Below, in pieces: positions 27,586 through 48,567 of a stretch of 64,000 nucleotides of DNA. The position numbers were made by a program, and so were the translations under genes. Location of the stretch: IMG/VR virus record IMGVR_UViG_3300028886_000070, positions 31,070 through 95,069 of that record; one strand, 5' to 3'. The number at the start of each line of letters is the position of its first letter. The stretch's first letter is position 1. This DNA comes from a virus. Its lineage: Duplodnaviria > Caudoviricetes. The notes under the pieces are model-generated. The model saw only the letters and a list, made by a program, of their open reading frames with translations. It had not been told where the DNA came from and ran no database searches.

Positions 27586-29510
27586 GATCCGCCTCCGTCC
27601 TTCAGCTCCTGGACCTGTTGCAGGTAGTGGTTGTCCCCGTGCCTGTCCCACGACCACGCCTTCGTGATCGTGAGTCCGCTCTCCGTCGGCACGCCCTTGT
27701 CGTCCGTCTGGTACGCGTAGCCGCAGAACCGGTGCGCGGAGCCGACGGGCAGCTCCGAGAACCACGTCGCGTTCCCCTCGATGTCCGGGCCGTAGCCCGG
27801 CTTCTCCGGCTCCGCCATGCCGAGGAGCCCGCGGAGGTCCTTCGCCGTGTGGTAGTCGATGGGCGTGCGGCCTATCGAGTACTGCTCGGTGAACGGCGGG
27901 TCCTTGAGGTCGTCGGAGCTGTCGGGCAGCGGGACGTACTTGTCGTCCTCGGCGTTCACGAGGCCGGACGGGAAGATCATCTTCTCGGCGATGAGCTCGC
28001 GGAGCTTTGTCCCGATGGACTTGCCGCGGTCGGACATGAGCTGCTCCTCGCGCTCGAGCTCCCGGAGCATGGAGTCGTACTCGTCGGAGACGAGCGCGCG
28101 GACGGCGGAGCTCTTGAGCTGCCGGTCGATGCGCATCTGGAATCCGACGGAGGTCTCCTCCGCGACGACGAACTTGAGGTCGGGGTCCGCCTCGAGCTCG
28201 GCCTCCGTCGGGGCGCGCAGGAGCTTCACCGGGACGGAGAACGACACGTACGCGGCGTCGGCCCCCGCCTTCACGGAGACGCCCTCGCCGAGCATGTTCT
28301 CCTGCGGCATGTGCTTCCACGACGTGCCGCCGAACTTCTCGCAGGCCGTCTGCTCGTGCCCGTCGTCCTCCTCGGGGGGCTTGGGCGGGTACAGGGCCAT
28401 CGCCGTCACGCCGCCGGACGCCGAGACGTCCGGGGTGATGACGCTCCAGAGGCGCGGGCCGTCGTTCCCGGCGAGGAGGACCCGGCCCGTCGCGTTCGAG
28501 TCGTAGGTGTTGAGCGCGCTCTCGTAGTAGCTCACCTGGCTGCTCGTCTTGAGCCCGGCCTGGCGCATGTCGCGGGTCGCGGCCTCCGCCTCCCGCTTCA
28601 TGGCCTGGTAGTCCGCGGCCGACACGTAGAGGTAGTGGTCGAGCGCGGAGCCGGGGAGCGCGGCGAAGGCGCGGTAGTCCGGGTAGAACTTGCCGGACAC
28701 CTCCTCGCCCTCGCTCTCGGAGAGGCGCTTCAGCGAGGCGACAAACGCGGCGGCGACGCCGTTCATGTCGTACTTGAGCGCCATGACGCTGCCGGACACG
28801 GTGCCGCCCTCCCCGTCGGAGAACGAGAAGGACGACGCGCCGGGCGCGCCGGAGACCCTCGCGAGCGAGGCGTCGAACGGCTGCGTCACGCGCGCGGCGA
28901 CCGCGAACACGTTGGCGGGGTACGGCTCCGGGAAGGGCGTGGGCTCCACGGGGTTCGCCATGACGCCGTACCACGCGGTCTCGTCTATGAAGCCCTGCGT
29001 GGCGGTGGGCGGGTCGAGCTGCACGGGCTCGACGAGCGACGCGGCCTTCGCCACCTCCTCGTCGACCGCGACCATGACGGCGAGGCACTGCACGTTCTGG
29101 TACGAGCCCATCTTGAGGACGTGCTCGTACGACGCGGAGAAGTCCGCCTCGTCGTGGTCGGAGAAGCAGTTCCACTCGTCGGAGCCCTTTGCCTTCTCGA
29201 CGACCATGCGCGTCTCCGCCCCGCCGTACTGGCGGCCGGAGCGGCGCGTCACGTCGTTGAAGTGTATGGGGGCGATGCGGAACTCGGTCTCGCGGGTGCA
29301 GGTCGCGACGGCGTACCTCGAACCCCACGTCGTCTTCACGAGCATGTCCGCGACGCACGCGACGAACCTCGGCGACACGCTGCGCGTCACCTTCCTGTAC
29401 TCGGGCGAGAACAGCAGCTTGCCGATGCACCGGGGATCGGCGCCGTCGTCCGGCCGCGCCACGTGGAGGTAGCGCGGGTCGAGCCCGGGTTCTCCCGCTA
29501 CGATCGCCAT
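27582..29510 (-). CDS. Putative tail structural protein (642 aa)
   Basis: Start MAIVAGEPGLDP coupled by TAATG; coding-like composition. Confidence 0.6.
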   Translation of the reverse strand: MAIVAGEPGLDPRYLHVARPDDGADPRCIGKLLFSPEYRKVTRSVSPRFVACVADMLVKTTWGSRYAVATCTRETEFRIAPIHFNDVTRRSGRQYGGAETRMVVEKAKGSDEWNCFSDHDEADFSASYEHVLKMGSYQNVQCLAVMVAVDEEVAKAASLVEPVQLDPPTATQGFIDETAWYGVMANPVEPTPFPEPYPANVFAVAARVTQPFDASLARVSGAPGASSFSFSDGEGGTVSGSVMALKYDMNGVAAAFVASLKRLSESEGEEVSGKFYPDYRAFAALPGSALDHYLYVSAADYQAMKREAEAATRDMRQAGLKTSSQVSYYESALNTYDSNATGRVLLAGNDGPRLWSVITPDVSASGGVTAMALYPPKPPEEDDGHEQTACEKFGGTSWKHMPQENMLGEGVSVKAGADAAYVSFSVPVKLLRAPTEAELEADPDLKFVVAEETSVGFQMRIDRQLKSSAVRALVSDEYDSMLRELEREEQLMSDRGKSIGTKLRELIAEKMIFPSGLVNAEDDKYVPLPDSSDDLKDPPFTEQYSIGRTPIDYHTAKDLRGLLGMAEPEKPGYGPDIEGNATWFSELPVGSAHRFCGYAYQTDDKGVPTESGLTITKAWSWDRHGDNHYLQQVQELKDGGGS

Positions 29511-32822: not shown

Positions 32823-32851
32823 ATTATACCATAAACGGGGTTCGTTTTCAA
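32823..32851 (-). promoter_or_regulatory. sigma70-type promoter
   Basis: TTGAAA-N17-TATAAT with TGGTATAAT. Confidence 0.75.
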
Positions 32852-34677
32852 CCGTCGTCGGCGAACGTGTCGTCGCCGTCGGCGGCGTCGGCCTCGTACC
32901 CGGCGGACTGCGGGACGCGGAAGCCGGGGTCGGCGGGCCGGGACATGAACATGGCGTTCGGCTGCACGGGGACGATGTAGCCGAACGGGAGGAGGCCGAT
33001 GCGCTCCTTGACGATGAGCGCCGCGAGCGCGCAGGCGTCGGCCTCGTTGGGGGACTTGCGGAAGCGGGCGTTGAAGTGCTTCTTGTCCTCGAGCCGCAGG
33101 GGCGAGACGACCGTCCCCGACGCCCCGCGCGTCATGAAGCGGCGGGAGCAGAGGGCGCGGAGCGCCTCCGCCGGGAGCCCGCGCACCTGGCCCGCCTTGC
33201 AGAACTCGGCGAGGACGCACCACGCCTCCGTGCCGCGGTCGTACACGATCTCGCGCGCCGGGCGCGTCTCCTTCGCGGCGCGGAGCGGCAGCTCCGACGC
33301 CCTCACGGAGTTGTTGACGGCGAGGCAGTCCGCGCCCGCGTAGATGAGGAGGTCGTCGGCGAGGCCCTGGTTCGCCGACGCGTCGACCGCCGTGTTGTGG
33401 AACGGGGCCTCGCCCGGGGCGCGCATGATGTCGATCACCCTGTCGCGCATCTGCTGGACGGGCGGGCGCGGGTCGGACGCGAGGATGGGGAGCTTCTGCA
33501 CGCCGTCGGTGAAGTCGAGGTACGGGCGCGAGAACTGGTCGATGCGCAGGAAGCACCTCACGCGCACCGCGTCGTCGCCGCCCTCCGACCACGCGGGGTC
33601 GATGCCGGCGGCGCACGCGACGATCCTGTGCGTGCGGTCGGCGCGCTCGGTCACGCGCTGCTGCGCGGCGACCTTGGGGTCGAGCACGGTCGGGACGCCC
33701 GTCGCGCCGGGGACGGGGAACCCGCGCACCATCTGCCAGTACATCGCGGCGTCGGCGTTGCCGTCGCAGTCGGCGAGGTTCTGCGCGACGACCTCCCGCG
33801 TGAGGAGGAACGGGTACTCCGCCGCCTTCTCGGGGTGGACCACCGTGATGCACTTGAGCCCGTCGTGGTGCCGGACGAGGAAGCCCCGCGTCGACGTCCA
33901 GAGGCCCGTGTCCACGTTCACGGTGGCGGGGCCGCCCGGAGGTATGCAGTACTGGCACGACTCGTCCTCCCACGAGCCGGGGTTCGCGAGGGCGAAGAAG
34001 CGGAAGTCGATCGCGCCCACGCGGAGGTTCTGCATGGCCTTGCGGATGTTGTCGTGGTGCGTGATGGTGGCGAGCTCGTCGATGACGAGGCGGACGTACT
34101 TCGCGTGCGCGCCCTGGAGCTTGCCGGAGTCCTCGCTGTCGTTCACGGCGACGCCGACGATCCCGGCCTTCTCGCCCACCGACTCCGGCGAGTCGTCCGC
34201 GTCGTCGTTCAGGACGGCGTAGCCGGACTTGGAGAACTTGCCCGGTATCGCGAGCCCGAGCTTGTTGCGGCGGAGCGCCGCGAAGTAGGTGACGACGGCG
34301 TTCCACGAACGCGACTTGAGCGACTGCTTGTCGGTGGACCCGAGGCGGATCACCGTGTCGAACGGGTCGGTGATCCAGTCGAGGAGCATCAGCAATCCGT
34401 AGTCGTTCGACTTGCCGCACGAGGCGCACCCCCAGGTGATGCAGCCCTTCTCGGCCATCACCCAGTCGTGGAAGTGCTCCTCCGTCCAGGGCGGGACCTT
34501 GAAGTACTGCTCGGGTATGAGGGCCTTCGCGGCGTCGAGGAGGGGGACCCACGGGTCCTTGAACTCGACGCCGTACTCGGCCTTGAACTGGCGCCACTTC
34601 TTCGCGACGGTCATGTCGATGAACGCGTCGCACATCTCGGCGGGCCAGTCGACCCCGTGTCTCGTCTTGTAGGTCAC
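32848..34677 (-). CDS. terL: Terminase large subunit (609 aa)
   Basis: Walker A GCASCGKS, Walker B LVIDE, coupling motif ALANP, nuclease motifs GIDPAWSEGGDD and SPNEADA; GTG start. Confidence 0.9.
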   Translation of the reverse strand: MTYKTRHGVDWPAEMCDAFIDMTVAKKWRQFKAEYGVEFKDPWVPLLDAAKALIPEQYFKVPPWTEEHFHDWVMAEKGCITWGCASCGKSNDYGLLMLLDWITDPFDTVIRLGSTDKQSLKSRSWNAVVTYFAALRRNKLGLAIPGKFSKSGYAVLNDDADDSPESVGEKAGIVGVAVNDSEDSGKLQGAHAKYVRLVIDELATITHHDNIRKAMQNLRVGAIDFRFFALANPGSWEDESCQYCIPPGGPATVNVDTGLWTSTRGFLVRHHDGLKCITVVHPEKAAEYPFLLTREVVAQNLADCDGNADAAMYWQMVRGFPVPGATGVPTVLDPKVAAQQRVTERADRTHRIVACAAGIDPAWSEGGDDAVRVRCFLRIDQFSRPYLDFTDGVQKLPILASDPRPPVQQMRDRVIDIMRAPGEAPFHNTAVDASANQGLADDLLIYAGADCLAVNNSVRASELPLRAAKETRPAREIVYDRGTEAWCVLAEFCKAGQVRGLPAEALRALCSRRFMTRGASGTVVSPLRLEDKKHFNARFRKSPNEADACALAALIVKERIGLLPFGYIVPVQPNAMFMSRPADPGFRVPQSAGYEADAADGDDTFADDG

Positions 34678-35015
34678 GGCACCTTCTTGAGGGCGTCCAC
34701 GATGTGCTCGGCGATCTCGCCCGCCGCCTCGCCGCCCGCCACGATTATCTGCGTGTGGTTGGTCGAAATGTCGGAGTTGAGGTCGTTGAGCGTCAGCGAG
34801 ACGACGTTCGTCCCGATGGTGACGCCGAGCGACCCGAACGACGTCCAGACGCCGTAGGAGTAGTAGCTCGCGTCCCACCCGCCTTCGACGATGCAGACGA
34901 CGTTGGTCTGCCCGGGCGGTACGTACACGACGGGGTCGTGCTTGTGGACGGATATGGAGCGGCAGCCGAGCGCGAGGAGCGCGCACGCGCCGAGAACACA
35001 GAGCATCTTGCGCAT
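34674..35015 (-). CDS. Lipoprotein (113 aa), possible spanin-type lysis component
   Basis: MRKMLCVLGACALLALG-C lipobox. Confidence 0.65.
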   Translation of the reverse strand: MRKMLCVLGACALLALGCRSISVHKHDPVVYVPPGQTNVVCIVEGGWDASYYSYGVWTSFGSLGVTIGTNVVSLTLNDLNSDISTNHTQIIVAGGEAAGEIAEHIVDALKKVP

Positions 35016-35230
35016 AAGCCGGGTTCCTTCGTGTATCTCATGAGCGATTCGAGGGCCCTTGCCTCGCGCTCGCCGTAGCCGAGGGCCTTGACGAGCTTCG
35101 CGGCGAGCACGGACGTGACGTGCTTCGTCTGCCACAGGTCGAGCGAGGGCCTGTCCTTGAACGTCATGGCGCAGAGCTCCAGGAGAAGCTCTGCGTCGAG
35201 ACGGTCTATCGTTATGGTCTTCCCCTTCAC
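34793..35230 (-). CDS. Hypothetical protein whose 3' part overlaps the lipoprotein gene
   Basis: GTGA-coupled start MKGKTITIDRL; only the first ~70 codons look coding. Confidence 0.4.
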   Translation of the reverse strand: MKGKTITIDRLDAELLLELCAMTFKDRPSLDLWQTKHVTSVLAAKLVKALGYGEREARALESLMRYTKEPGLCARCSVFSARARSSRSAAAPYPSTSTTPSCTYRPGRPTSSASSKAGGTRATTPTASGRRSGRSASPSGRTSSR

Positions 35231-35511
35231 CACAGCCCCCACGTGTGGCGGCAGAGGTCCCACGGCAGCATCACCGTGTCCGCCGCCGCGTCGAACGGAA
35301 GGTCGATCAGTATGACCGGGAAGAGCAGCGTGCAGTACGCCTTTGCGATGCCGCCCTCCGGGCCCTTCGGCTCGGAGAACGGGATCGCGAGGGTCTCCGC
35401 CACCTCGCAGGTGCACCAGTACGGGCCGAGGTTCCGCTCGGCGTCCGGGCGCATCATGAGGTTGCAGCACCCCGCGCAGGCGAGGAGCGCGACAGCGAGG
35501 AGCCGCTTCAT
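35227..35511 (-). CDS. YceK/YidQ-family lipoprotein (94 aa)
   Basis: Lipobox ACAG-C and C-terminal IDLPFDAAADTVMLPWD, matching the YceK/DUF1375 signature. Confidence 0.75.
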   Translation of the reverse strand: MKRLLAVALLACAGCCNLMMRPDAERNLGPYWCTCEVAETLAIPFSEPKGPEGGIAKAYCTLLFPVILIDLPFDAAADTVMLPWDLCRHTWGLW

Positions 35512-35849
35512 CAGTCGAGCTCCAGGTCGAACCACTTCTCGAGGTAGTGCTTCAGGCCCTTCCAGCCGAGGCCGAAGAGCGAGAAGCCGTTCCAGAGGAG
35601 GCTGACGCCGATGCCCCCCTGCTTCGGGACCCACTTGTCGACGGTCGCCCCGAACACGGCGTTGAGGTTCTGCTCCTCCGTCGCGTCGATGTTCCCGTCC
35701 TTGAAGGAGGCGATCCACGTCTGGCCGATGGCCGCGACGTCGCCTCCGACTTCGAGGGCCACCTTCGTGTTCTTGTCCTCGAAGCTCTTCTGCGCGGCCT
35801 TCTTGACGGCGGCAGCGTAGATTTTCTTGATGATGTCGTTGGTTGTCAT
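35511..35849 (-). CDS. Small membrane-associated protein, possible holin (112 aa)
   Basis: RBS AAGGAG; amphipathic/hydrophobic C-terminal segment; next to lipoproteins. Confidence 0.45.
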   Translation of the reverse strand: MTTNDIIKKIYAAAVKKAAQKSFEDKNTKVALEVGGDVAAIGQTWIASFKDGNIDATEEQNLNAVFGATVDKWVPKQGGIGVSLLWNGFSLFGLGWKGLKHYLEKWFDLELD

Positions 35850-37027: not shown

Positions 37028-40000
37028 TCACCACCCCGCGAGATCCGCCGTGCGGCGGTACTGGATTATGACGCCGAGGACGCACGCGCCCGTGCCGAGC
37101 GCGACGCCGTCGCCGCCGTTGTTGAACTGGTAGGCGCGCTTGAGCTGGAAGTGGACTGTCTTGCCCGCCACCGCCGTGCCCGCGACGGGAACGGTCCCGG
37201 ACGCGCCGGTCATGTGCACCTGGCCGTACGCCTTCAGCTGGTCGTCGATGTTGACGGGCGACGTCGGCATCGCGCCGCCGAGGTCCTCGCCGTCCCCGAA
37301 CGCCCTCGCGCCGAGCGTGAAGCGCACCCACTGGTCGGTCGCGCCGTCCGTGTTGTACGGCGTCCACAGCACCTTCGCCTGGATCGGCGAGTCCACGTCC
37401 CAGTCGGGCGGGAACGCCACGGAGAAGTCCGCGTACGTGTCCTTCGTGGAGTGGAAGCGGAGGACGTCGTGCACGGTCGAGTTCGCCGCGACGGAGAACG
37501 ACTCCGCCGCCGCGCCGTTCGTCTCCGTCGGGGTCATCGCCCCGGCGGGGACGTAGATCGTGTCGTAGCGCGGGAGCAGCTGCGCGAACTGCGCGAGCGC
37601 GAGCGCCGTCACCTTGCGGAAGTCGCTCTCGGAAACGTCGTAGAGGATGAGCTCGTCGCCGTTCGCGAGGGCGTCCACGAGGGCCTGGCCGTCGATCGTG
37701 ATGTGCTCGGAGCCCGTCTGCAAGGGCGGGACGGCCCACGTGCCGTCGGCCTTGAGGAACTTGTCGGCGGAGCCGTCGCCGGCCGACGGGGCCGGGACCT
37801 GGCCCTGCGCGCCGCCGGAGCCGGTGTCGCCGGTGAACACGGTCGAGCCGGGCGGCGTCGCCCACGCGCCCGCCCCGTTCAGGAACTGCGCGGAGTTGCC
37901 GGAGAGCTTCGGAAGGAGGCCATGGTAGTTCGCCGACGCGTCGAGGAGGACGGAGTCGGACGCCACGACGAGGTCGTCCAGCCTTACGTTCAGCTTTATC
38001 GCGGCGAGGACGTACGTCCACAGGCGCGACATCGTCATGCTGCGGAACTTCGAGCCGGACGCGATGGAGACGTCCTCGACGATCAGCTTGTCGCCGTCGG
38101 CGAGGTCGGCGTTGATGTCGGCGGCCGCGGTCGTGTCGACGAGCCGGTCGAGCTTCGCCTTGTCGGTGTGGGACATGAGGCCGTGCCTGGCCGACGTGGC
38201 GTCGAGATTCACGCCTCCCGTCACGGGCGCCGCGAGGTCGTCGAGCTTCTTGTTGGCCAGCAGCGTCTCGATCGCCGTGCACGCGGCCCTCACGGCGGCC
38301 TCCGACACGAGCGACAGGTTGTCGGCGGTCCCGCCGGAGCGCACCTCCGTGCGGAACAGGAGCCCGTTCTTGAGCGAGGCGCCGGAGCCCCACTGCGGGA
38401 TGTAGTTCTCGGTGTGCGTCTCCGGGACCTGGATGAACGTCCCGCCGAGCGCCGCCCTGACGGCCGCTTCGGTGACGAGCGCGTTGTCGGTCGCGAGGCC
38501 GGCCTGCCGGACGGACGTCCTCACCACGAAGCCGGAGGCGAGGGAGTTGTCGTTGTTCCACACGGGCACGTAGCCGGCGACGTGCGCGTTCGGGGCCATC
38601 ACGACGCCGTCCGCGATCTCGCCGATCGCGAGGCGCACGGCGTAGGAGGTCGGGATCGCGTCCGCGCCCGCGGCGGCGTCCGCCGGGAGCTCGTCCTGGA
38701 CGGCGTAGCCCTGCCCGAGGACGTTCATCGCGGCCCACGCCGGGATGTACCCCGCCGTCACGGACGCGGGGCCCACGACGGACGAGAGGTCGGCGAGCTG
38801 CACCCACGTCGTAGAGGAGCCGCTCGCGGCGGAGCACCTGAAGAGCACGCGGCTCGAGGTGTTCCAGTAGAGGTCCCCCTCCTTCGCGTTGACGCCCGTC
38901 ACGCTTCCGGCGGCGGACACCTCGAGGCCGGCGAGCATGGACTTGCCGGGATCGCCGGCGTCGCCCTTGGTGCCGATGCCGGCCGTCCCCTTTATGCAGC
39001 CGACGTACGACCAGAGCGCGGTCGCCGCCGTGCCGCCCAGCGTGCACTTGTAGATGTCGAAGGTCGTCGGGTTGAGGCCGAGGTCTCCCTCGACGGGGTC
39101 GACCCCGAGCGACGCGAACGCGGCGGACGCGCCCGTCCCGGTGAAGACCGTCGAGACGTGCCACCGCGAGCCGGTGTCGCCCTTGTCGCCCTTGTCGCCC
39201 TTCGCGCCCTTCAGCGTGGCGAGGTACTCGTACGCGGCGGAGCCCTTGCGGTAGAGCTTGCCCGCGTCGGCCCCGGCGGAGATTATAACGAGACCACCGG
39301 CGGGGACGGAGTCGGACGACCAGCCCGCCGTCATCGCGGCGACGGACTCGTACGACCTCGAGACGGTCGTGGAGCCGGCCTCGCCGGTGTCGCCCTTCGG
39401 GCCCTTGATGCTGCCCGCGGCGCTCCACTTCGCCGTGGCCGCGTTGCCCGCGACCGCGCAGCGGTAGGTCATGCCCGTCGCCGTGTTGAGGTACATGTCC
39501 CCGACGGAGGCGTACGCGACGCCGGAGCCGGCGAACGCCGTCGGTTCGGAAGAGGAGCCCGTGACGCCCTCGCCCGCGTACCACTGCCCGGGTGACGCGG
39601 ACGGGATCGGAGGGGCGTCCACGAGGTCGTAGAAGCTGCCGCTCCTCGCGACCGCGGCGAGGTTCTCGTCGTCCGCCTTGCGCTGCATGGCGTCCTCGAG
39701 CTCCTTCAGCCTGCCGGACTCTACGCCGCCCTCCTCCTTGAGGATGGCGTCCGCCCTCGACGACAGCCCCTCTATGGCCTCGGCGACGGCGGCGTTCTGG
39801 ACCGCGTTGGGGCTGTCGGGGTCGAGGCCCTCGTCGGGCGCGGGGAAGTTGACGTTGAGCGTGCCGTCCCCGGCGACGCTCATGCCCGTCCCCGGCTTCA
39901 CGACGCCGGCCTGCGCGGCGGTCGCGGCCGCGACGGACACCTTGCCGTCGGACGCGACGCTCACCGCGCCGACGCCCTCGAGCGTCTTCTGCTTCCCGGC

Positions 40001-40444
40001 GAGGAGCGCGTCCACCTGCGCGGCGGTGTAGAAGCCGGTCTCGGCGGAGCCGACGGAGAACGGGCGGAGGATCACCGGGATGTCGCACGCGGCGTAGGTG
40101 ACGTCCGCGTCGGATATGACCACGTAGCCGTCGTGGACCCCCGCGCCGGACGCCGTAAGCCAGTCGGCCACGGCCTGCTGGTTCATGAGGAGCGCCGTCG
40201 TCCGCAGCTTCTTCTGGTTCTGCGGGACGGAGAAGAGGTTCGCGGAGGCGACGGGCACGAGGTCCGTCCTCGACCGGTACACGACGATCGAGAGCGTCGC
40301 CGTGTCGACGGCGTCGAGCTCCTGCTGCGTGAGCTGCGAGAGGTCGAGGACGAGCGGGTTGTATGTGTCGCCCGCGACGAGCGCGTGGAGCTCGCTGGGG
40401 ACGGCGGCGTGCCTCTGTATGTCGATCGAGAGCGTGAGCGTCAT
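37028..40444 (-). CDS. Tail fibre protein with collagen-like G-x-y segments (~1138 aa)
   Basis: RBS GGAGGA before MTLTLSIDI. KGPKGDTGEAG, KGAKGDKGDKGDTG, repeated GD-x-Y-x-N and GLMSHTDKAKLD fibre motifs. Confidence 0.8.
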   Translation of the reverse strand: MTLTLSIDIQRHAAVPSELHALVAGDTYNPLVLDLSQLTQQELDAVDTATLSIVVYRSRTDLVPVASANLFSVPQNQKKLRTTALLMNQQAVADWLTASGAGVHDGYVVISDADVTYAACDIPVILRPFSVGSAETGFYTAAQVDALLAGKQKTLEGVGAVSVASDGKVSVAAATAAQAGVVKPGTGMSVAGDGTLNVNFPAPDEGLDPDSPNAVQNAAVAEAIEGLSSRADAILKEEGGVESGRLKELEDAMQRKADDENLAAVARSGSFYDLVDAPPIPSASPGQWYAGEGVTGSSSEPTAFAGSGVAYASVGDMYLNTATGMTYRCAVAGNAATAKWSAAGSIKGPKGDTGEAGSTTVSRSYESVAAMTAGWSSDSVPAGGLVIISAGADAGKLYRKGSAAYEYLATLKGAKGDKGDKGDTGSRWHVSTVFTGTGASAAFASLGVDPVEGDLGLNPTTFDIYKCTLGGTAATALWSYVGCIKGTAGIGTKGDAGDPGKSMLAGLEVSAAGSVTGVNAKEGDLYWNTSSRVLFRCSAASGSSTTWVQLADLSSVVGPASVTAGYIPAWAAMNVLGQGYAVQDELPADAAAGADAIPTSYAVRLAIGEIADGVVMAPNAHVAGYVPVWNNDNSLASGFVVRTSVRQAGLATDNALVTEAAVRAALGGTFIQVPETHTENYIPQWGSGASLKNGLLFRTEVRSGGTADNLSLVSEAAVRAACTAIETLLANKKLDDLAAPVTGGVNLDATSARHGLMSHTDKAKLDRLVDTTAAADINADLADGDKLIVEDVSIASGSKFRSMTMSRLWTYVLAAIKLNVRLDDLVVASDSVLLDASANYHGLLPKLSGNSAQFLNGAGAWATPPGSTVFTGDTGSGGAQGQVPAPSAGDGSADKFLKADGTWAVPPLQTGSEHITIDGQALVDALANGDELILYDVSESDFRKVTALALAQFAQLLPRYDTIYVPAGAMTPTETNGAAAESFSVAANSTVHDVLRFHSTKDTYADFSVAFPPDWDVDSPIQAKVLWTPYNTDGATDQWVRFTLGARAFGDGEDLGGAMPTSPVNIDDQLKAYGQVHMTGASGTVPVAGTAVAGKTVHFQLKRAYQFNNGGDGVALGTGACVLGVIIQYRRTADLAGW

Positions 40445-40457
40445 CTGTTGTCCTCCG

Positions 40458-41039
40458 TCAGTCGGCGCCGAGCCTGTCGAGGATGGCGTCGATGTCGTCA
40501 ATGAATAGCTGGTAGATGGCCTTCGTCGTGGGGAGCGCGGCCTTGTCGCGCTTCGACACGTAGTCCGCGCGCTTCTCCCGCAGCGGCGCGACGGCCGCCG
40601 CGACGGCGTTCGTCTTCGCCGCGTACAGCGCCTCCGCCACGGCGGCGCGGTTGGACATGGAGGCGTAGAGCCCCTCCACGGCGGACACCCTGTTGGAGAG
40701 CGAGACGCACAGCGCCTCGGCGACGCCGGCCCTGTTGGACGCGTCGAGCCAGCTGTCGCGGAACGCCTGCGCCGCGGCCTGCGCCGCGCCGAGCCTCTGG
40801 ACGAAGGTGTTGGTCTGCGGGCGGAGGACGATGCTCCTCACGGCGTTCGTCGTGGTCCACTCGCGCCCCCTGTACCTCCACGTGGCGACGACGTTCGTCG
40901 TGCCTCCGTCCACGACCTTGCGCCGCGAGACGCATACCGTCCTGTCGGCGACGGCCTTGACGCGCTTCGCGGTCTGCGCCGGCAGGAACTCCGCCGTCGC
41001 CGTCAGCGCGAGAAGCGCAAACGCAAAAGCCCACTTCAC
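40458..41039 (-). CDS. Exported protein with signal peptide and coiled coil (193 aa)
   Basis: MKWAFAFALLALTATA-; GTGA coupling; SNR heptad-type repeats. Confidence 0.7.
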   Translation of the reverse strand: MKWAFAFALLALTATAEFLPAQTAKRVKAVADRTVCVSRRKVVDGGTTNVVATWRYRGREWTTTNAVRSIVLRPQTNTFVQRLGAAQAAAQAFRDSWLDASNRAGVAEALCVSLSNRVSAVEGLYASMSNRAAVAEALYAAKTNAVAAAVAPLREKRADYVSKRDKAALPTTKAIYQLFIDDIDAILDRLGAD

Positions 41040-41485
41040 TTCCGGCCTCCCTTCCTCTGGCGCGGCGGACGCACGACGGGCGTGTCGAGCGGCCAGCGCC
41101 TCCTCATCTCCACGCCGTCCGCGCGCCTGTAGACGCGCTCGCACGTGTTGGTGTCGTACCCTACCAGGACCATGCGCCCGTACTTCGCCTGCGCCTCCTG
41201 GAGCCACCTCACGGCGGCGCTTGCCTCGGCCCTCGACTTCGCGGCGGCCTCGGACGCCCTCGCCCTGCGCTCGGCCATCTCGACGCGCCGCGCCTCGTTG
41301 GACGCCACGTACGCCTCGAGCCGGCACATGCGGACGGTCAGCATCGCCACCTGGTCGGGCAGGCTGTTCGTGAACACCGGGAACCCGGACGGGTCCCTCG
41401 GGAGCGCGGGCTCCGTCACGACCGTGAGCTGGCCCGCCATAGCGGTCGCGGCGCACAGCGCCGCCATCACTGCAAGTCTCATCAT
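41036..41485 (-). CDS. Exported protein with signal peptide (149 aa)
   Basis: MMRLAVMAALCAATAMA-; ATGA coupling. Confidence 0.7.
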   Translation of the reverse strand: MMRLAVMAALCAATAMAGQLTVVTEPALPRDPSGFPVFTNSLPDQVAMLTVRMCRLEAYVASNEARRVEMAERRARASEAAAKSRAEASAAVRWLQEAQAKYGRMVLVGYDTNTCERVYRRADGVEMRRRWPLDTPVVRPPRQRKGGRK

Positions 41486-42279
41486 TCGCCTCCTCCGCCC
41501 GATCCGGGCAATATCCTCTCGACGAGGACTCCGTTGTCGTACCTCGATACGTCGGCCCCCTCCGCCGTGACGGAGTTGGTGACGACGCCCGTCAAAGTCT
41601 GCCTGCCGTCCACCGTGACGATGGCCCCTCCGAACGAGAGGCCGACGTCGGGCCTCCCGATCCCCACGGCGGGGTTGGGCGAGAGCGGGACGCCCCGCGC
41701 CCAGTCGGGCCTCGCGAACTTCATGAGCTTGCAGCCCTCGAAGCCGTTCGTGTCGACGGACGTCGACCAGTCCACCCACTCCGCGTCCACGTAGGCTGTC
41801 TGCTCCTCGCCCCTGTACCGCCTCGAGAGCGACGGCGGGATCAGCAGCTCCTGCGAGAACCAGACGAGCGCCCAGTCGTTCGTGCCGTCCGTCCACTGCG
41901 CCGGCTCGTGCGCCCAGAACGCCTGCCGGTTGCCGTCGGGCGGGACGACGAGGCGCAGCACCACGGCGTCCTTCGGGAAGCGGTTCGTCACCGCCCGGAG
42001 ACCCTCCATCGCGTCGTCGAGCCCCTCCCTCGCGGACTCCATGATGGCGGTCGACTCCTCGGCCACCTTGGCTATCGCGGCCGCCCTCGCGGTGGACGCG
42101 ACCTTGCCGGAGGGGTCTATGAGCTCGTGGGCCGAGGTCTCCATGACGTACTGCCTCCGCCACCCCTTCGTGTGGACGGTGTCGGAGGTGAGGTTCGTCA
42201 CCACCTCGCGCGTCGGCTCCGGCGGGTCGTCCGCGAAGGCGAGGAACGGAACGAGCAGAAGCATCCACGGCCTTTTCAC
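41482..42279 (-). CDS. Exported fibre/spike-like protein (265 aa)
   Basis: MKRPWMLLLVPFLAFA-; coiled coil plus beta domain. Confidence 0.7.
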   Translation of the reverse strand: MKRPWMLLLVPFLAFADDPPEPTREVVTNLTSDTVHTKGWRRQYVMETSAHELIDPSGKVASTARAAAIAKVAEESTAIMESAREGLDDAMEGLRAVTNRFPKDAVVLRLVVPPDGNRQAFWAHEPAQWTDGTNDWALVWFSQELLIPPSLSRRYRGEEQTAYVDAEWVDWSTSVDTNGFEGCKLMKFARPDWARGVPLSPNPAVGIGRPDVGLSFGGAIVTVDGRQTLTGVVTNSVTAEGADVSRYDNGVLVERILPGSGGGGE

Positions 42280-42617
42280 TTCGCGCCCTCCCTCTTCATG
42301 GACTCCCAGAAGGCGATGGCCTCGCACGCCTGCGACGCGCCGTCGCGGAGCGGGCCCTCGCCGTTCCTGTACCTCATGCAGTAGTCGACGACCTTGAGGC
42401 CGACCTTCTCCTGCAAGTGCGTGAAATACTCCCGCCTCGTCACCTCGTGCCCGGACAGCCTGAAGATCGCGAGACCTCCGCGGATGTCCACGCTCGCGAC
42501 CCCCCTCGGGTCGAACCTCTCGGCCACGTACGGCGGCCTCGGGGACGCGACCGTGAAGGGCGTCCTCCTCTCGCCGCATCCCGCGAGGAGCAGCAGGCAT
42601 GCGAACGCCCACCTCAC
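42276..42617 (-). CDS. Lipoprotein (113 aa)
   Basis: MRWAFACLLLLAG-C lipobox. Confidence 0.7.
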   Translation of the reverse strand: MRWAFACLLLLAGCGERRTPFTVASPRPPYVAERFDPRGVASVDIRGGLAIFRLSGHEVTRREYFTHLQEKVGLKVVDYCMRYRNGEGPLRDGASQACEAIAFWESMKREGAK

Positions 42618-43078
42618 GGCTCGGCCTCCCCGTCCTGCCCGTCCACGACGACGCGCCACTCGGAGTCCTCCCCGATGAAGAACCCGTCGATGACGTTTAT
42701 GAAATCCTTGCCCGTGGCCTCGTGGTCGATGAAGAGGACGGCCTTCCACATCCCGTCGACGGACTTGCGGTACACGGTCGCCGAACGGTTCGTTATGGCG
42801 ACGTGGGCGTCCGAGGAGTCCTTCACGGCCCACCGCACGGTGGCGTTCGTGGAGGTCAGCTCGACGGGCTCGAGCGCGACGCCCTTCACGAGCTCGACGT
42901 CCGGCTTGTCGGCGGCGTACGCCGCCATCACGACGGCGGCCACGGCGAAGAACGCCATGCCCTTCGGCTTTCTCCCGATCGCCGACGAGATCGCGGGCCA
43001 CGCCTTCATGACGGCCAGCGCGAGAAGGCAGATCAGCAGCCCCGCGACGAGCGCGTAGAGTCCCCATCCGGCTATCAA
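42614..43078 (-). CDS. Membrane protein with two N-terminal TM segments and a beta domain (154 aa)
   Basis: TTGA-coupled start; two hydrophobic helices. Confidence 0.6.
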   Translation of the reverse strand: MIAGWGLYALVAGLLICLLALAVMKAWPAISSAIGRKPKGMAFFAVAAVVMAAYAADKPDVELVKGVALEPVELTSTNATVRWAVKDSSDAHVAITNRSATVYRKSVDGMWKAVLFIDHEATGKDFINVIDGFFIGEDSEWRVVVDGQDGEAEP

Positions 43079-44373
43079 GGCTCCACCTCCGGGGCCAGCG
43101 CCAGCCCTCCCTGGAACTCCAGAGTCCCTCCGCCGTACACGGGGACCTCGCCCGTGAGCCCTCCGGCGAAGCCTCCGACGAGGTCGATCGCGTCGCCCGT
43201 CCCGCCGTGGCCCGACGCCTCTACGTACACCTTCACGAAGTACGCGCCGAACGCCGCCGGGATGTAGACGGGCATCTTCCAGCACGAGACGAGCTGGTCG
43301 CCCGCGACCTCGACCGTCCCGGCCTGCGCGACCGCCGCGTCGTGGTCGGCCTCCGTCCAGACGAGCGGGTCGTCCGAGAGCGAGGCGACGGTCATCGGCT
43401 TCGGGTCGGCCGCGCCGAGGTCCTCGGTGAAGCCGAACCACACGTCGTGCCTGTCGCACGCGACGCCGTTCCTCGTCGCCGTCCCGGCCTTCGAGTCGAA
43501 CCTGTAGATGCGGCACACCGCGTCCTCCGACGGCCCCGCCGAGGGTACGCCGAAGGAGTACATGAAGTCGTCCTGGTACACCGTCACCTGCGCGTTCGCG
43601 ACCGCCTCGGCCAATGCGCCGACCTCGGCCTTCGCCTGCTCGAACGCGTTCGACTGCGCGACCGCCGCCGCCTCCGCCGCCGCGCCCTGCGCCTCCGCCG
43701 CCGCGACCTGCGCCGCGGTCGCGAGCACGTTCGACGGGCTCACGTTCCCGTTCTCGTCGACGGTCACGTACTGGAGCCGCGCCCCGCCGGAGGAGAACAC
43801 GTGGGAGATCGTCCTCTCCCAGTCGCCGCCGAAGTTGCCGATCAAGGGCCACCCGTCGGCGTACGCCCTGTCGTCCTCCTCCGGGACGTTCGCCCGGAAG
43901 AACGCGGTGCCGACGCCCTGCGCCACCCACACGCCGCTCCTCCACGCGACCTCGTAGGTCGTCCCGAGGCTCGACCAGTTGAGGTTCAATTCCGCCGGGT
44001 CCTGGTACGCCACCTTGAACTCGGTGTTGCCGCCGTCCATGAGGTAGGCGACCTTCACGTAGGGGAAGTGCCTCTCGGGATGCTCGAGCGTCCCGCCGGT
44101 GATGGCGTACCACACGTCCTTCCTGTTGTACACGATGCCGGACACGTTGGTCGTCACCCCGGAGTCCACGGTCGAGACGATCACGACGGAGAGCCCCGCG
44201 AGGCTCCCGCGCAGCGGACGGGCCAGCCACGAGGCGGGGAGCAGCCCCTTCGCCCCGGGGACGATGCGCCTCGCGTCGACGGCCTCGCACGTCGAGGCGT
44301 CGTACGCCATCTCGGACTCGATGCCGAAGGCGGGGAGCGCGAGGAGCGCCAGAACCATCAGAGCGCGCTTCAT
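43075..44373 (-). CDS. Exported fibre/spike-like protein (432 aa)
   Basis: MKRALMVLALLALPAFG-; Ala-rich coiled coil plus beta domain. Confidence 0.7.
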   Translation of the reverse strand: MKRALMVLALLALPAFGIESEMAYDASTCEAVDARRIVPGAKGLLPASWLARPLRGSLAGLSVVIVSTVDSGVTTNVSGIVYNRKDVWYAITGGTLEHPERHFPYVKVAYLMDGGNTEFKVAYQDPAELNLNWSSLGTTYEVAWRSGVWVAQGVGTAFFRANVPEEDDRAYADGWPLIGNFGGDWERTISHVFSSGGARLQYVTVDENGNVSPSNVLATAAQVAAAEAQGAAAEAAAVAQSNAFEQAKAEVGALAEAVANAQVTVYQDDFMYSFGVPSAGPSEDAVCRIYRFDSKAGTATRNGVACDRHDVWFGFTEDLGAADPKPMTVASLSDDPLVWTEADHDAAVAQAGTVEVAGDQLVSCWKMPVYIPAAFGAYFVKVYVEASGHGGTGDAIDLVGGFAGGLTGEVPVYGGGTLEFQGGLALAPEVEP

Positions 44374-44374
44374 G

Positions 44375-45199
44375 TCAGTTCCCTCCCGTCACCGAGATCT
44401 CGACGTTGGTGTACGCGGTCTCGAAGAACGTCCCGGACATCGCGGTCTTCTTCCACATGACGGAGAGCCCCGGGTCCCACGTGACGTCCCACAGCCGCTG
44501 CGAGAGCGCGGCCCTCGCGAGGTTGGTTATGACGATGTTCTCGATCTCCGCCTTCGAGTACACCTCGTCGCGCCCCGCCTTGGCCGCGTCGAGGAGGGCG
44601 ACCCTCGGCTGGAGCGCGTCCCACGCCACCACCTTCGCCGCCGTGACGCCGGAGTTGACGGCGTTCGTCTGCGGCTCGGTCAGGGCGTCCTGCTTCCCCG
44701 CGCCCCAGGACTCGTACTTCTGCACGCGCCCCGCGGTTATCCCGGACGTGACGGCGTCCAGCTTCGCGCCGGCCAGCTTGTCCTCCTTCCCCGTGCGCAT
44801 CGCGTCCCACGCCGCCACCTTCGCGGAGGTGACTCCCGAGTTGACGGCGTTCGTCTGCGCCGCGGTGAGCGCGTCCTGCTTCGAGGACTTGAGGGCGTCC
44901 CACTCCCCGACCTTCGATGAGGTGACTCCCGAATTGAGCGCGTTCGTCTGCGCAGGCGAGAGCGCGTCCTGCTTCCCGGCGAGAGCCTCCGAGAGGATCG
45001 ACCACCTCACGATCCAGTTCGTCCCGCCTCCCGGGAGGAAGAGCGAGCCTCCCGCCCACCGGGCGAGGATCGCGGACGGGTTCACCGCCGTCACGACGGT
45101 GTCGCGGGAGCGCAGGGCCCCCAGCGAGTTCGTCGCCACGCCGTCGTCCGCGAACACGGACATGGCGGCGAGCGCCAACGCAAGTATCAGCTTCTTCAC
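44375..45199 (-). CDS. Exported protein with tail-fibre-type repeats (274 aa)
   Basis: MKKLILALALAAMSVFA-; four 31-aa KQDAL..AQTNAVNSGVT..KV..WD repeats. Confidence 0.75.
   Translation of the reverse strand: MKKLILALALAAMSVFADDGVATNSLGALRSRDTVVTAVNPSAILARWAGGSLFLPGGGTNWIVRWSILSEALAGKQDALSPAQTNALNSGVTSSKVGEWDALKSSKQDALTAAQTNAVNSGVTSAKVAAWDAMRTGKEDKLAGAKLDAVTSGITAGRVQKYESWGAGKQDALTEPQTNAVNSGVTAAKVVAWDALQPRVALLDAAKAGRDEVYSKAEIENIVITNLARAALSQRLWDVTWDPGLSVMWKKTAMSGTFFETAYTNVEISVTGGN
44610..44980 (-). repeat. 93-bp coding tandem repeat (4 degenerate units)
   Basis: Recurring gagttgacggcgttcgtctgcg...gcgtcctgctt at 93/186-bp spacing. Confidence 0.75.
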
Positions 45200-45612
45200 G
45201 ACACTCCCTCCTTCGCCGCGACGTACGCGATCAGCTTCGCGAGGAGCTCGTCCTTCTGCGCGACGGTGAGGTCGCCGGGGTCGCCCGCGTCCGTGATCGC
45301 CTCCACGACGGACGACGGGACGCTCCCGCCTCCCGACGAACCGCCTCCGCCGGAGGAGCCCCCGGCCACCTTCGTCCACGTCCTCGTCCCCGACGAGGCG
45401 CGCAGCACGTACAGCTCCGACGCGTCCACGTCGAAGTAGAGCGAGCCCTCCACGTCCGACGGAAGCACCGCCGGCGCGCCCGAGCCGGTGCGGCACGCGA
45501 CGCGCGGGCCCCCGGAATCCGGGGCGACGCCCGGCGCGGGCCTCACGGACGGTCCGAGGGGCAGGGGCGTCACGGGCATCCCGCCCGGAACATCCACTAT
45601 CCAGCTTGCCAT
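45196..45612 (-). CDS. Small fibre-like protein (138 aa)
   Basis: GSGAP...GSLYFD...LYV...WT motif typical of phage fibre modules; Gly linker. Confidence 0.6.
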   Translation of the reverse strand: MASWIVDVPGGMPVTPLPLGPSVRPAPGVAPDSGGPRVACRTGSGAPAVLPSDVEGSLYFDVDASELYVLRASSGTRTWTKVAGGSSGGGGSSGGGSVPSSVVEAITDAGDPGDLTVAQKDELLAKLIAYVAAKEGVS

Positions 45613-45613
45613 C

Positions 45614-45937
45614 TCACGATCCTCCTTGGCAGAACGGGCACTTGACGGCGGCCTTCTCGCCGGGACGCAGGGCGTCCGGGAACCTCCGGCAGAAACCGGG
45701 GCGCACGGCGTACACGTAGCACCGGTCGTCCGAGGTCAGCAGGGGGCACCTTCCATGCACGGGCATAAGCCACTTCGGCCCTGGCGGGAGGCCAGGCTCG
45801 ACCTTGTAGGTCGCCCGGAAGAGCTCCGGCGACATGCCGCACGCGCGGGCCACGGACTCGAGCTCGACGTCGTCCGCGATCGGGACGGAGCCCTTCCCCC
45901 GGCAGCATCCGCCGCACATGTGGCACTCGAAGCCCAC
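45614..45937 (-). CDS. YkgJ-family CxxCxxCC Zn/Fe-chelating protein (107 aa)
   Basis: FECHMCGGCC...CPLL...CYVYAVRPGFCRRFP. Confidence 0.85.
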   Translation of the reverse strand: MGFECHMCGGCCRGKGSVPIADDVELESVARACGMSPELFRATYKVEPGLPPGPKWLMPVHGRCPLLTSDDRCYVYAVRPGFCRRFPDALRPGEKAAVKCPFCQGGS

Positions 45938-45943
45938 GGGAAC

Positions 45944-46369
45944 CTACTCCGCGACGAGCGACACGCGCTCCGCGGTCCCCGCGTTGTCCACGCGGTCTCC
46001 GCCGAGCACCCAGAAAACCTTGTTCGTCTGGAGCGTCCCGCCCGCGCAGGACGCCGTCACGACGACGTTGGAGACGGACTTCGCGACGGTCGCCACGGAC
46101 GTCGTCCAGTTCGTGCCCAGCACGGGAACCCCGGCGGACGTCCATCCGTTCGTGACCACGGTGGCCGTGCGCACGGGGTACGAGCGCGAGACGTCGGCGA
46201 ACCGTCGCACCTGCACGGTGGCGGTGAGGTTCGTGGACGCCGCGGACACGGCCGCGACCTTGAGAGGCGCGGAAGCCGCGGGATGCTGGTACGGGAGGCG
46301 CAGCTCTACGTACGCGGAGGCGCAGATCGCGCCCGCGACGATGGCCGCAAGGACAAGTAGCTTCTTCAT
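45944..46369 (-). CDS. Exported beta-rich protein (141 aa)
   Basis: MKKLLVLAAIVAGAICASA-; RBS TAAGGAG; first gene after a promoter. Confidence 0.75.
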   Translation of the reverse strand: MKKLLVLAAIVAGAICASAYVELRLPYQHPAASAPLKVAAVSAASTNLTATVQVRRFADVSRSYPVRTATVVTNGWTSAGVPVLGTNWTTSVATVAKSVSNVVVTASCAGGTLQTNKVFWVLGGDRVDNAGTAERVSLVAE

Positions 46370-46402: not shown

Positions 46403-46431
46403 ATTATATCATATTGGCGCTTCGCACGCAA
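46403..46431 (-). promoter_or_regulatory. sigma70-type promoter at the head of the left-arm operon
   Basis: TTGCGT-N17-TATAAT with TGATATAAT. Confidence 0.7.
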
Positions 46432-48012: not shown

Positions 48013-48567
48013 ATGAATTATCGCAAGCTCGAGATGTTCGGCAGGGAGTACCGCCGGACCGATTCGATGCCGATCGGAGTGTGGGTTGCCGAGGACGGGC
48101 ACGTCATCACGAAGCGCGTGGTCGACGAAGCGTACCGCGGAACCCTTGTCCAGATCAAGGGACAGAACAGCTTCTATGCGGCGGCGGGCATGTCCGTGAA
48201 GGACGGCCTCGCCACGGGGACACGAGTGCAGCGCACCGTGTCCTCGCTCGTGTACGAGGCGTTCAAGGGCGTCATCCTGCCGCCCGGCAGGCACATGGCC
48301 CACCTCAACGGAGACACCCTCGACAATTCCCTCGCCAACCTGCGCCCCGCCCCGAGGCAGGACCGCATGGTGGCGATGGTGGACGTCGAGACCGGGGAGA
48401 CCCTGGACGTCTTCCGCAACGTGAGGACGGCCGCGGCCGCCGCGAAGATTCCTCCCGCGTTCGTGCGCGTGTGCCTCGAGGGCCGCGTGCGCAAGGCGGG
48501 AGGCTACGCGTGGCGGTGGGACGACAACGACCCCGAGCCGGAGCCGCTCGTCCTCGTCGAGGATTGA
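48013..48567 (+). CDS. HNH endonuclease-like protein with C-terminal NUMOD1-type domain (184 aa)
   Basis: LVYEAF...HLNGDTLDNSLANL; C-terminal F.NVRTAA...CLEGRVRKAGGYAWRW; RBS AAGGAG. Confidence 0.8.
   Translation: MNYRKLEMFGREYRRTDSMPIGVWVAEDGHVITKRVVDEAYRGTLVQIKGQNSFYAAAGMSVKDGLATGTRVQRTVSSLVYEAFKGVILPPGRHMAHLNGDTLDNSLANLRPAPRQDRMVAMVDVETGETLDVFRNVRTAAAAAKIPPAFVRVCLEGRVRKAGGYAWRWDDNDPEPEPLVLVED

Follow-up and report, generated by a model that had tools for sequence, protein, structure and literature searches.

A portable cassette of export-type proteins with an exchangeable front protein in tailed phages of unrelated architecture

To our knowledge, tailed phages are thought to build all of their host-recognition parts in the cytoplasm, and the exported phage proteins known to us are either lysis proteins or single exclusion factors. 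Here we describe a locus that shares features with several known systems: ten consecutive minus-strand genes (40458-46369, numbered g1 to g10 in the order of transcription) in a 64,000-nucleotide stretch of the genome of an uncultured tailed phage. This stretch, referred to below as the window, corresponds to bases 31070-95069 of the 95,069-bp IMG/VR virus record IMGVR_UViG_3300028886_000070 (CheckV completeness 99%). Judged from gene order and protein families, four of the ten genes, g5, g6, g8 and g10 (proteins B, C, D and E), belong to a portable cassette, B-C-D-E, which has so far gone undescribed and which is preceded by a variable gene, here g4 (protein A). We tentatively read the cassette as an assembly anchored in the envelope that displays an exchangeable binder during late infection, rather than as a part of the virion built in the cytoplasm, and place the chance that this is correct a little below even. 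A preliminary description made from the DNA sequence alone had proposed an undescribed system, and the comparisons below bear this out, as no described system fits.

The tail-fibre cassettes of lambda (stf-tfa) and P2 (H-G) are similar to the locus in genome position, in the modular exchange of specificity beside constant partners and in some of their fibre repeats. They are leaderless and folded in the cytoplasm, with a conserved N-terminus and a variable C-terminus, whereas all products of the present locus except g2 and g3 are predicted to be exported. By our own rule set, g4, g5, g8 and their relatives have Sec-type N-termini, while g11, the fibre gene that follows the locus, is leaderless; searches with Pfam, PHROG and tblastn matched g4, g5 and g8 to no known fibre family. 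A trimeric autotransporter is not indicated either, as none of the ten proteins matches a YadA anchor family in Pfam. Spanins, whether Rz/Rz1 pairs or unimolecular, are likewise late phage proteins that combine an inner-membrane anchor, a lipoprotein and helical periplasmic parts. Here, unlike in spanins, g6 has a beta-rich periplasmic domain, the signals of B and D are predicted to be cleaved off, A is large and variable, and separate spanin-like genes are present. The domain of g6 is of the fibronectin type III (FN3)-like kind, the spanin match of the lipoprotein g7 covers its lipobox only, and no holin or endolysin gene adjoins the locus in this phage.

T5 Llp and the Cor lipoproteins, exclusion proteins that block receptors, are also phage-encoded, exported to the envelope and encoded beside host-recognition genes, and g7 too is a small lipoprotein; masking of the infected cell's receptor is also the purpose that we propose below. 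They are single small lipoproteins, in contrast to the at least five co-conserved, mostly non-lipoprotein products described here, which are apparently co-transcribed with a fibre gene. We know of no Llp or Cor protein in a multi-gene late module, and the cassette proteins have no sequence or family match to the Llp/Cor type in Pfam, PHROG, NCBIfam or PADLOC. Type V pili of Bacteroidia (FimA/Mfa1) may offer another parallel: they consist of about five exported proteins of immunoglobulin (Ig)-like fold with a variable tip adhesin, and their assembly through a C-terminal strand is possibly comparable to the C-terminal tag of A. Type V pilins are lipoprotein precursors that are processed by a protease and anchored by an outer-membrane subunit. 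In the present locus, by contrast, only g7 has a lipobox, and the sequence or fold match is limited to a generic Ig-like sandwich. The nearest cellular parallel is provided by the MAT fibres of Bdellovibrio bacteriovorus, which are Sec-exported and combine phage-fibre-type modules with variable binding parts (PMC10769870). These are cellular genes, whose products have a conserved domain, rich in beta structure and about 130 amino acids (aa) long, after the signal and a variable C-terminal tip, many of them with an S74 chaperone-protease (PMC10769870). A proteins differ in varying directly after the signal, in carrying their tag at the C-terminus, in lacking S74, in having four partner proteins and in being encoded by phage genomes; the arrangement of a conserved domain after the signal followed by a variable C-terminal tip is not found among them.

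The distribution of the core was recovered by searching 1.84 billion representative proteins with a profile of g5 and four homologues. This search returned 86 clusters, nearly all of them of proteins of about 250 aa that match only g5 residues ~200-430, and a further search gave 88 clusters for the B family. All 20 of the 20 B-cluster proteins inspected begin with a signal peptide. The genes around them form a fixed neighbourhood, composed of A (variable, with a signal), B (~250 aa), C (~105-155 aa, combining a membrane span with a motif like GTKPD and a domain of the FN3-like kind), D (~260 aa, 73 clusters) and E (~135-190 aa), D and E each having a signal. When hidden Markov models (HMMs) of the four constant families were applied, the order B-C-D-E was identical at every locus long enough to hold it, about 20 loci in all, which include eight IMG/VR contigs and three metagenome-assembled genome (MAG) or chromosome records (loci other than the window are designated by L numbers).

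In the window, g5 (protein B, 432 aa; 43075-44373, minus strand) has a Sec-type signal (..AFG/IE), an extra N-terminal Ig-like domain, a 40-aa helix and a C-terminal Ig/FN3-like sandwich. It is followed by g6 (protein C, 154 aa; 42614-43078, minus strand), whose TTG start overlaps the g5 stop behind the Shine-Dalgarno sequence GGAGGTGGAG. This protein has two hydrophobic spans, an ADKPD motif and an FN3-like beta domain predicted to be periplasmic; the basic loop between the two spans places the C-terminal domain outside in this prediction. The core is completed by g8 (protein D, 265 aa; 41482-42279, minus strand), with a signal (..AFA/DD), a helix at residues 60-98 and an Ig-like sandwich, and by g10 (protein E, 193 aa; 40458-41039, minus strand), with a signal (..ATA/EF), a conserved W..G.EW.TT block and a helical C-terminus. 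The four genes stand in the order B-C-D-E on one strand, with g7 and g9 inserted, and match their families with HMM E-values of 3e-60 (g5/B), 1e-44 (g6/C), 1e-67 (g8/D) and 2e-43 (g10/E), where the C, D and E models include the window's own protein. Pairwise comparisons are consistent with these assignments: g6 aligns with the C proteins of eight other loci (membrane span, GTKPD, corresponding to ADKPD in g6, and beta domain), g8 matches D proteins by BLASTP at 1e-9 (its L006 homologue at 3e-13, over the full length), and g10 matches E of L013 at 5e-5, E-family HMM matches being found in every complete cassette. Profile-profile comparison of B and D with hhalign (probability 97.4%, E 1.4e-11, full length) identifies them as paralogs at the sequence level, and the B sandwich appears to be weakly duplicated in the additional N-terminal domain of g5 (E 1e-3).

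Several searches outside this protein set gave no relatives. Single-protein scans with g5 and g8 and alignment-based scans found none in IMG/VR, nor did a first scan of genome contigs, and tblastn with g5, g4 and a further protein (P0016) had no match in 50,697 GenBank phage records. At E <= 0.01, neither Pfam nor PHROG has a family that g4, g5 or g8 matches. When all ten proteins were compared with Pfam, PHROGs, NCBIfam and PADLOC, the YkgJ family, in g2, was the only one recovered. For B, C, D, E and the tag of A we found no library family, solved structure or literature description.

The cassette occurs in phages of four virion architectures: P2-like, Mu-like, SU10-like, and the crAss-like type of the phage described here and its relative L006. 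In the P2-like prophage L018 it follows gpD, gpU, gpW, Baseplate_J, Tail_P2_I, a 723-aa fibre with a Collar domain and Caudo_TAP_N; DUF1353, a lipoprotein and Amidase_3 come after it, and an integrase farther on. Beside the L018 cassette one can thus recognise genes for the tape measure, gpD, gpU, the baseplate, a fibre and fibre assembly, and no gap separates it from the tail genes. In the Mu-like prophages L016, L017 and L013 the cassette lies between Portal_Mu, Mu-like_Pro_N and Mu gp36 on one side and PhageMin_Tail on the other; the L016 copy sits within a 311-kb bacterial contig. L024, a 6.1-Mb chromosome record, has D- and B-family matches, and the adjoining 319-aa protein resembles that of L016. 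The SU10-like phages L014 and L020 carry SU10_MCP and SU10_portal. GC content of the cassette-bearing loci ranges over 50-70%, and the source names of the MAGs (among them Kiritimatiellia, Bacteroidales, Gammaproteobacteria, Vicinamibacterales) give a weak hint of host range, binning of phage contigs being unreliable. A 282-aa B protein is 100% identical in L013 (Mu-like, on a 645-kb contig), L014 (SU10-type) and L015 (a third contig). This identity suggests that the cassette was recently exchanged between different phages of one host. The preliminary description had placed the unit at the head of the virion module; its core g5-g6-g8-g10 is not confined to that module of this phage, being found in P2-like, Mu-like and SU10-like phages as well.

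Since the cassette spans four unrelated tail architectures, its constant partner would be the cell envelope, the one thing shared by all these phages, rather than the tail. An alternative explanation, which we regard as unlikely, is that A, held by B to E, is the host-recognition appendage of the particle itself, folded and perhaps cross-linked or modified in the periplasm; it is equally doubtful, in our estimate, that such an appendage is added to completed particles once the holin has opened the inner membrane, or upon lysis. This would agree with the position of the cassette, which is always within late structural operons adjoining tail or fibre genes, and with the size of A, which is large where no other fibre is recognised (SU10-like loci) and minimal (111 aa) in the fibre-bearing P2-like prophage. 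It would also require one B-E set to attach to tails of the P2-like, Mu-like, SU10-like and crAss-like kinds, and an adaptor set that fits four unrelated tails is unlikely; moreover, the membrane-anchored C would keep the complex on membrane fragments. Because P2-like L018 has its own fibre, baseplate and tail genes together with an A of only 111 aa, the cassette does not appear to be an essential virion fibre.

The variable member of the set in the window is g4 (protein A, 274 aa; 44375-45199, minus strand; GTG start, Shine-Dalgarno AAGGAGGGAG), which has a Sec signal (..VFA/DD), four KQDAL repeats of about 31 aa and the C-terminal tag ..VMWKKTAMSGTFFETAYTN... KQDAL repeats had been noted from the sequence, and the unit, KQDAL..QTNA[LV]NSG[VI]T, is indeed present in four copies of ~31 residues; the accompanying label of a tail-fibre type is not established, as no GenBank phage record matches and the L006 homologue gives only a faint likeness. 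That homologue (L006:3646-6207) has 853 aa with the same repeats and tag, and an insert of ~400 aa between the fibre repeats with a faint likeness to Ntn hydrolases of the choloylglycine/penicillin V acylase type (Pfam E 0.01, PDB 2rg2 E 0.006, one shared region). It also faintly resembles PDB chain 6r5w_A, "Gp15 protein", a phage receptor-binding protein (E 0.029). Other A proteins contain LRR_5 repeats or a faint hint of YadA_head (L020), or consist of 111 aa only, a signal and the tag (L018).

The tag, W-[KRE]-x(4-7)-G-x-aromatic-aromatic-x(2-3)-[AT]-[YAV]-T-N, lies a few residues short of the stop. It ends (...AYTN) 12 of the 13 candidate A proteins inspected, the exception being the more upstream of two candidates in L011, and the g4 tag matches the A protein of the SU10-like L020 at E 1e-9. 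In L013, L014 and L015 the last ~70 residues of the A genes are identical and the upstream parts differ. The variable sequence and constant C-terminal tag, together with the shared B/C-D-E base, therefore point to A as an exchangeable front part set on an unvarying base. The composition of A from fibre modules, leucine-rich repeats and faintly adhesin-head-like sequence, varying as receptor-binding proteins do, would suit an appendage of the virion as well. The polarity is opposite to that of ordinary fibres, A being conserved at its C-terminus and variable at its N-terminus, and this argues against such an appendage. The idea that the phage secretes a copy of the receptor-binding domain of its virion was also considered and is unsupported, as BLASTP finds no likeness between g4 and g11.

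Export signals were scored with a simple, crude rule set of our own, which looks for a basic n-region, an uncharged h-region and small residues at -3/-1. Sec-type signals were found in g1, g4, g5, g8, g9 and g10, a lipobox in g7 and transmembrane spans in g6, with none in g2 and g3; inspection of the N-termini thus gave the same six, one and one that had been proposed at the outset. Under this rule set 8/10 genes of the locus score as exported, vs ~4/87 other genes of the phage (Fisher p 1.4e-7). A more lenient test for a hydrophobic, uncharged N-terminal stretch is positive for B in 144/144 proteins, D in 73/73, E in 8/8 and C in 9/9, and for 8/87 of the other proteins of this phage. Export-type N-termini are therefore a property of whole families.

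The cluster is kept in the relatives L007 and L008 (protein identity ~93-96%). In L006, at 33-52% identity, the gene order is unchanged and g2 alone of the ten is missing. In L006 the signals have diverged in sequence and kept their character, as they have for four genes of L009. Against L007, a relative of ~95% identity, the ratio of nonsynonymous to synonymous substitution rates (dN/dS) is 0.18 overall and 0.07-0.40 per gene (nine genes), which indicates purifying selection. Signals and gene order accordingly persist across L006-L008, and the two findings that would have spoken most directly against the proposal, absent signals and an unconserved cluster, did not occur. An artefact of wrong frames or chance hydrophobic starts is excluded by GC content at third codon positions (GC3), by dN/dS and by the family-wide conservation.

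With export-type N-termini, the membrane anchor of C and the lipoprotein g7, we infer that assembly is extracytoplasmic. We know of no tailed phage that exports virion proteins, which counts against A being an exported part of the particle. The target proteins of phage diversity-generating retroelements (DGRs) in one survey were without the signal peptides or transmembrane regions seen on surface-displayed bacterial ones (Benler et al., PMC6199706), and this leaderless state of phage targets (PMC6199706) likewise weighs against exported virion fibres.

Models of the two paralogs were obtained with AlphaFold2. That of g5 (145 sequences, mean predicted local distance difference test (pLDDT) score 77) comprises the signal, a sandwich at residues 62-163, a 40-residue helix at 220-260 and a second sandwich at 287-426; that of g8 (74 sequences, pLDDT 73) comprises a helix at 60-98 and a sandwich at 123-256. 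Foldseek had no match in the PDB at E <= 1e-3, the BFVD fold search gave low-TM rows only, and the ESM Atlas search no usable match. With VIA-align the best matches were FN3/Ig domains of cytokine receptors (g5: Z 6.8, root-mean-square deviation 3.7 Å, 86 aligned; g8: Z 5.0, 3.1 Å, 74 aligned), Z values that lie below the level at which more than a common fold is meant. The two proteins had been pictured as coiled-coil plus beta-head spikes. One long helix and a sandwich are indeed modelled, and the heads, as modelled, are generic Ig/FN3-like sandwiches (Z 6.8 and 5.0).

The exported proteins share a compositional signature: across all eight, counting mature parts only, 32/54 Asn (59%) are preceded by Ser or Thr, compared with 71/731 (10%) in the rest of the proteome and 1/37 (3%) in the leaderless fibre g11. 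By family the value is 64% for D (669/1039, 74 members), 47% for E, 45% for C and 30% for B, while Ser and Thr make up only 11-16% of residues in the families with this bias. Among the sites concerned, T234-N235 of D and, in the tag of A, YTN hardly vary. A classical N-glycosylation tag was rejected as an explanation, as N-x-S/T is not enriched (15% vs 11% of Asn) and D/E-x-N-x-S/T does not occur. That the bias marks a cross-link or other modification is speculation. Being confined to exported proteins, it could mark extracytoplasmic modification or cross-linking of virion fibres. A version of this idea is an extracytoplasmic fibre assembly line, in which insertion of a C-terminal strand, or a covalent Asn-based link, would connect A with B, D and E, a scheme to which we give a small chance. 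That its product, the finished appendage, would be loaded at lysis onto complete particles of differing tail types we hold to be similarly improbable, and there is the same slender chance that the conserved ...YTN ends and the Ser/Thr-Asn bias are the signature of such a line.

The time at which the cassette acts can be approached through its genome setting. The ten genes are translationally coupled according to GC3 frame analysis and inspection of start codons and Shine-Dalgarno sites, which place ten consecutive genes exactly within the bounds given in the preliminary description, 40458-46369. All ten have a GGAGG-type ribosome site, and most overlap the preceding stop. They belong to a minus-strand block that extends from an open frame of 6.5 thousand amino acids up to window position 46369, with a GC content of ~70%, vs 62-66% in the plus-strand block, which encodes, among others, a DNA polymerase of family A, a helicase, a nuclease of the PD-(D/E)XK type and an NTPase protein of the DUF5906 type that is possibly a primase-helicase. 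Upstream of g1 lies a putative sigma-70-type promoter with an extended -10 (46403-46431, minus strand; TTGCGT, 17 nt, TGATATAAT). The 95-kb genome has 11 sites with its pattern, TG-n-TA-n-AAT, each preceding a transcription unit, on both strands. Sites of this class (TTGAC-like, ~17 nt, TG-n-TA-n-AAT) are found at window positions 46411, 32831, 21721 and 13331 on the minus strand and 47968 and 63609 on the plus strand. A scan for consensus promoters found none, and the TG-n-TATAAT class came from a pattern search. The presumed early and late blocks seem to use one and the same host-type promoter class.

After the site before g1, the next site of this class downstream on the minus strand lies only at 32831, and the ten genes, g11 and five more genes therefore probably form a single transcript. 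Tight packing or overlap of the genes and the one promoter-like site before g1 suggest late co-expression. Two small lipoprotein genes lie farther downstream in this transcription unit (35227-35535 and 34674-35015, both minus strand); the product of the former combines a lipobox (LACAG/C) with a C-terminal hydrophobic span, which is how a unimolecular spanin is laid out.

The fibre gene g11 (37028-40444, minus strand; ~1138 aa) stands outside the exported set. It matches tail-fibre PHROG families (phrog_15437, E 1e-8), has short collagen-like GDKGD runs and carries no export signal. Its start is most likely the ATG at 40444 (1138 aa) rather than the upstream TTG at 40501 (1157 aa), because the L007 homologue has 1138 aa and that of L006 aligns from residue 20. 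Pfam and PHROG scans of 19 other large minus-strand genes gave nothing beyond the fibre PHROGs on g11, and no capsid, portal or terminase could be named for this phage from these scans. The label of a virion module for the minus-strand block would thus rest partly on g11. About 15 large genes of this presumed structural block (13362-37026, minus strand) are without a Pfam or PHROG match.

Late expression would also suit an egress module, in which C in the inner membrane, the helices of B, D and E, and A or g7 at the outer membrane together span the periplasm and, in the manner of spanins, help at lysis by breaking or detaching the hosts' outer layers. We consider this slightly less probable still than the exported fibres discussed above. 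An inner-membrane anchor, helix-bearing periplasmic proteins and, in this phage, a lipoprotein are all present; in L015 holin-type genes come directly after the cassette, and in L018 a lipoprotein and the Amidase_3 endolysin come two to three genes on. The size range of A (111-853 aa) and its binder-like diversity are unlike a lysis part, and the periplasmic domain of C is a beta sandwich with no coiled coil. Separate spanin-like lipoproteins exist (35227-35535 in the window, with lipobox and C-terminal transmembrane span, and others near the lysis genes of L018 and L015), and the cassette is away from lysis genes in this phage and in the Mu-like prophages.

The least likely of the readings considered here is periplasmic exclusion, whereby the complex stays in the periplasm and A binds the tail tips or ejected proteins of superinfecting phages, much as T4 Spackle binds gp5. 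A periplasmic or membrane location is predicted for all parts, and a variable binder would fit an arms race. Precedents exist in T4 Spackle and T5 Llp (PMC7677548, PMC9586334). The prophage cassettes have neither a gap nor a promoter of their own, seem tied to late genes and would not protect the lysogen; tight packing with late genes thus argues for a late role rather than protection of the lysogen. Five components also far exceed the known exclusion systems, and no PADLOC model matches any of the ten proteins at E <= 0.01.

We therefore tentatively favour a cell-envelope appendage over virion fibres matured in the periplasm. In this appendage C (g6) would be held in the inner membrane with its FN3-like domain in the periplasm, and the paralogs B (g5) and D (g8), each with a helix and an Ig-like sandwich, would complete the constant core together with the small E (g10). 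The core would grip the exchangeable A (g4) through the conserved C-terminal tag, and A would be the carrier of specificity, whether through repeats of the fibre or leucine-rich kind, through sequence with a faint likeness to adhesin heads, or through what may be a hydrolase domain. The phage described here may add the lipoprotein g7, the exported g1 and g9 and the cytoplasmic g2 and g3. Because the module appears to be co-transcribed with fibre genes, it would act late, presenting a variable binder or enzyme on or within the envelope of the infected cell. Its most likely job would be to cover or change the receptor, or surface layer, that the phage itself uses, and such receptor masking would keep progeny and competing phages from being lost on infected cells and debris; help with egress is an alternative job within the same scheme. 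T5 Llp offers a precedent of an exported phage protein encoded beside receptor-binding genes (PMC9586334). The mutual binding of the cassette proteins, their final location and their function are what we infer here.

Several points weigh against an envelope appendage. No outer-membrane translocator is encoded, which leaves a surface location of A unexplained, and location, cleavage and binding of the proteins are predicted only. The exclusion proteins we know of are single genes expressed early or from a prophage, not five-part late modules. The modules of A are of fibre and adhesin type, and its gene is always surrounded by tail or fibre genes, so that a virion role would suit it equally; in the SU10-like loci no other fibre gene was identified, and A could be the sole receptor-binding protein there. 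In L015 and L018 the neighbours of the cassette include holin or endolysin genes, which suits egress.

The remaining genes of the locus are extras of this lineage or of its closest relatives. The first, g1 (141 aa; 45944-46369, minus strand), has a Sec-type signal (..CASA/YV) followed by a beta-rich domain of ~120 aa; it begins at an ATG behind AAGGAGA, its dN/dS is 0.19, and its L006 homologue (49% identity, signal kept) shows a weak B-family HMM match (9e-4). The lineage-specific g2 (107 aa; 45614-45937, minus strand) encodes a YkgJ-type CxxCxxCC metal-binding protein without a signal (PF03692: E 1.5e-10, 42.1 bits, cut-off 23; N-terminal CHMCGGCC). The early recognition of an embedded YkgJ gene was thus correct, although the gene, found in L007/L008 and missing from L006, stands outside the conserved set. 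The leaderless g3 (138 aa; 45196-45612, minus strand) has a Pro/Gly-rich N-terminus, a Gly-Ser linker and a C-terminal helix; it is 34% identical to its L006 homologue, has a weak likeness to g11 (E 0.23) and matches no Pfam or PHROG family. The lipoprotein g7 (113 aa; 42276-42617, minus strand; lipobox LLAG/C) is found in the closest relatives only, with the lipobox kept and 36-37% identity in L006 and L009; its PHROG match to an Rz-like spanin (E 0.008) covers residues 3-31, i.e. the signal only. Finally, g9 (149 aa; 41036-41485, minus strand) has a Sec signal (..AMA/GQ), a charged helix, a conserved C-terminal block and a basic tail; it shows 49% identity in alignment with L007 and L006, and no counterpart was found in the other cassettes. 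BLASTP detected no paralogy among the ten genes. Elsewhere in the genome are two HNH_3 homing-type endonuclease genes (48013-48567, plus strand, and L004:10362-11000), one opening the rightward block and the other adjoining the DNA polymerase gene, and a tRNA-Lys(CTT) reported by ARAGORN (27909-27993, plus strand) within the minus-strand coding gene 27582-29510, which is probably false.

A five-part module with export-type N-termini, which late operons carry in phages of at least four unrelated architectures, at loci of 50-70% GC, points to a widespread and as yet unnamed form of envelope-acting phage biology, in which the swappable A looks like the specificity determinant. The B, C, D and E HMMs, the A tag and the Ser/Thr-Asn signature make the cassette directly searchable and testable. 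Should A and its partners join the particle, they would overturn a textbook rule and constitute a portable host-range unit; a periplasmic assembly line would provide the first tailed-phage virion parts matured in the periplasm, as a portable plug-in receptor-binding unit. If the cassette masks receptors, as we favour, it would represent a new kind of exclusion or anti-readsorption device.

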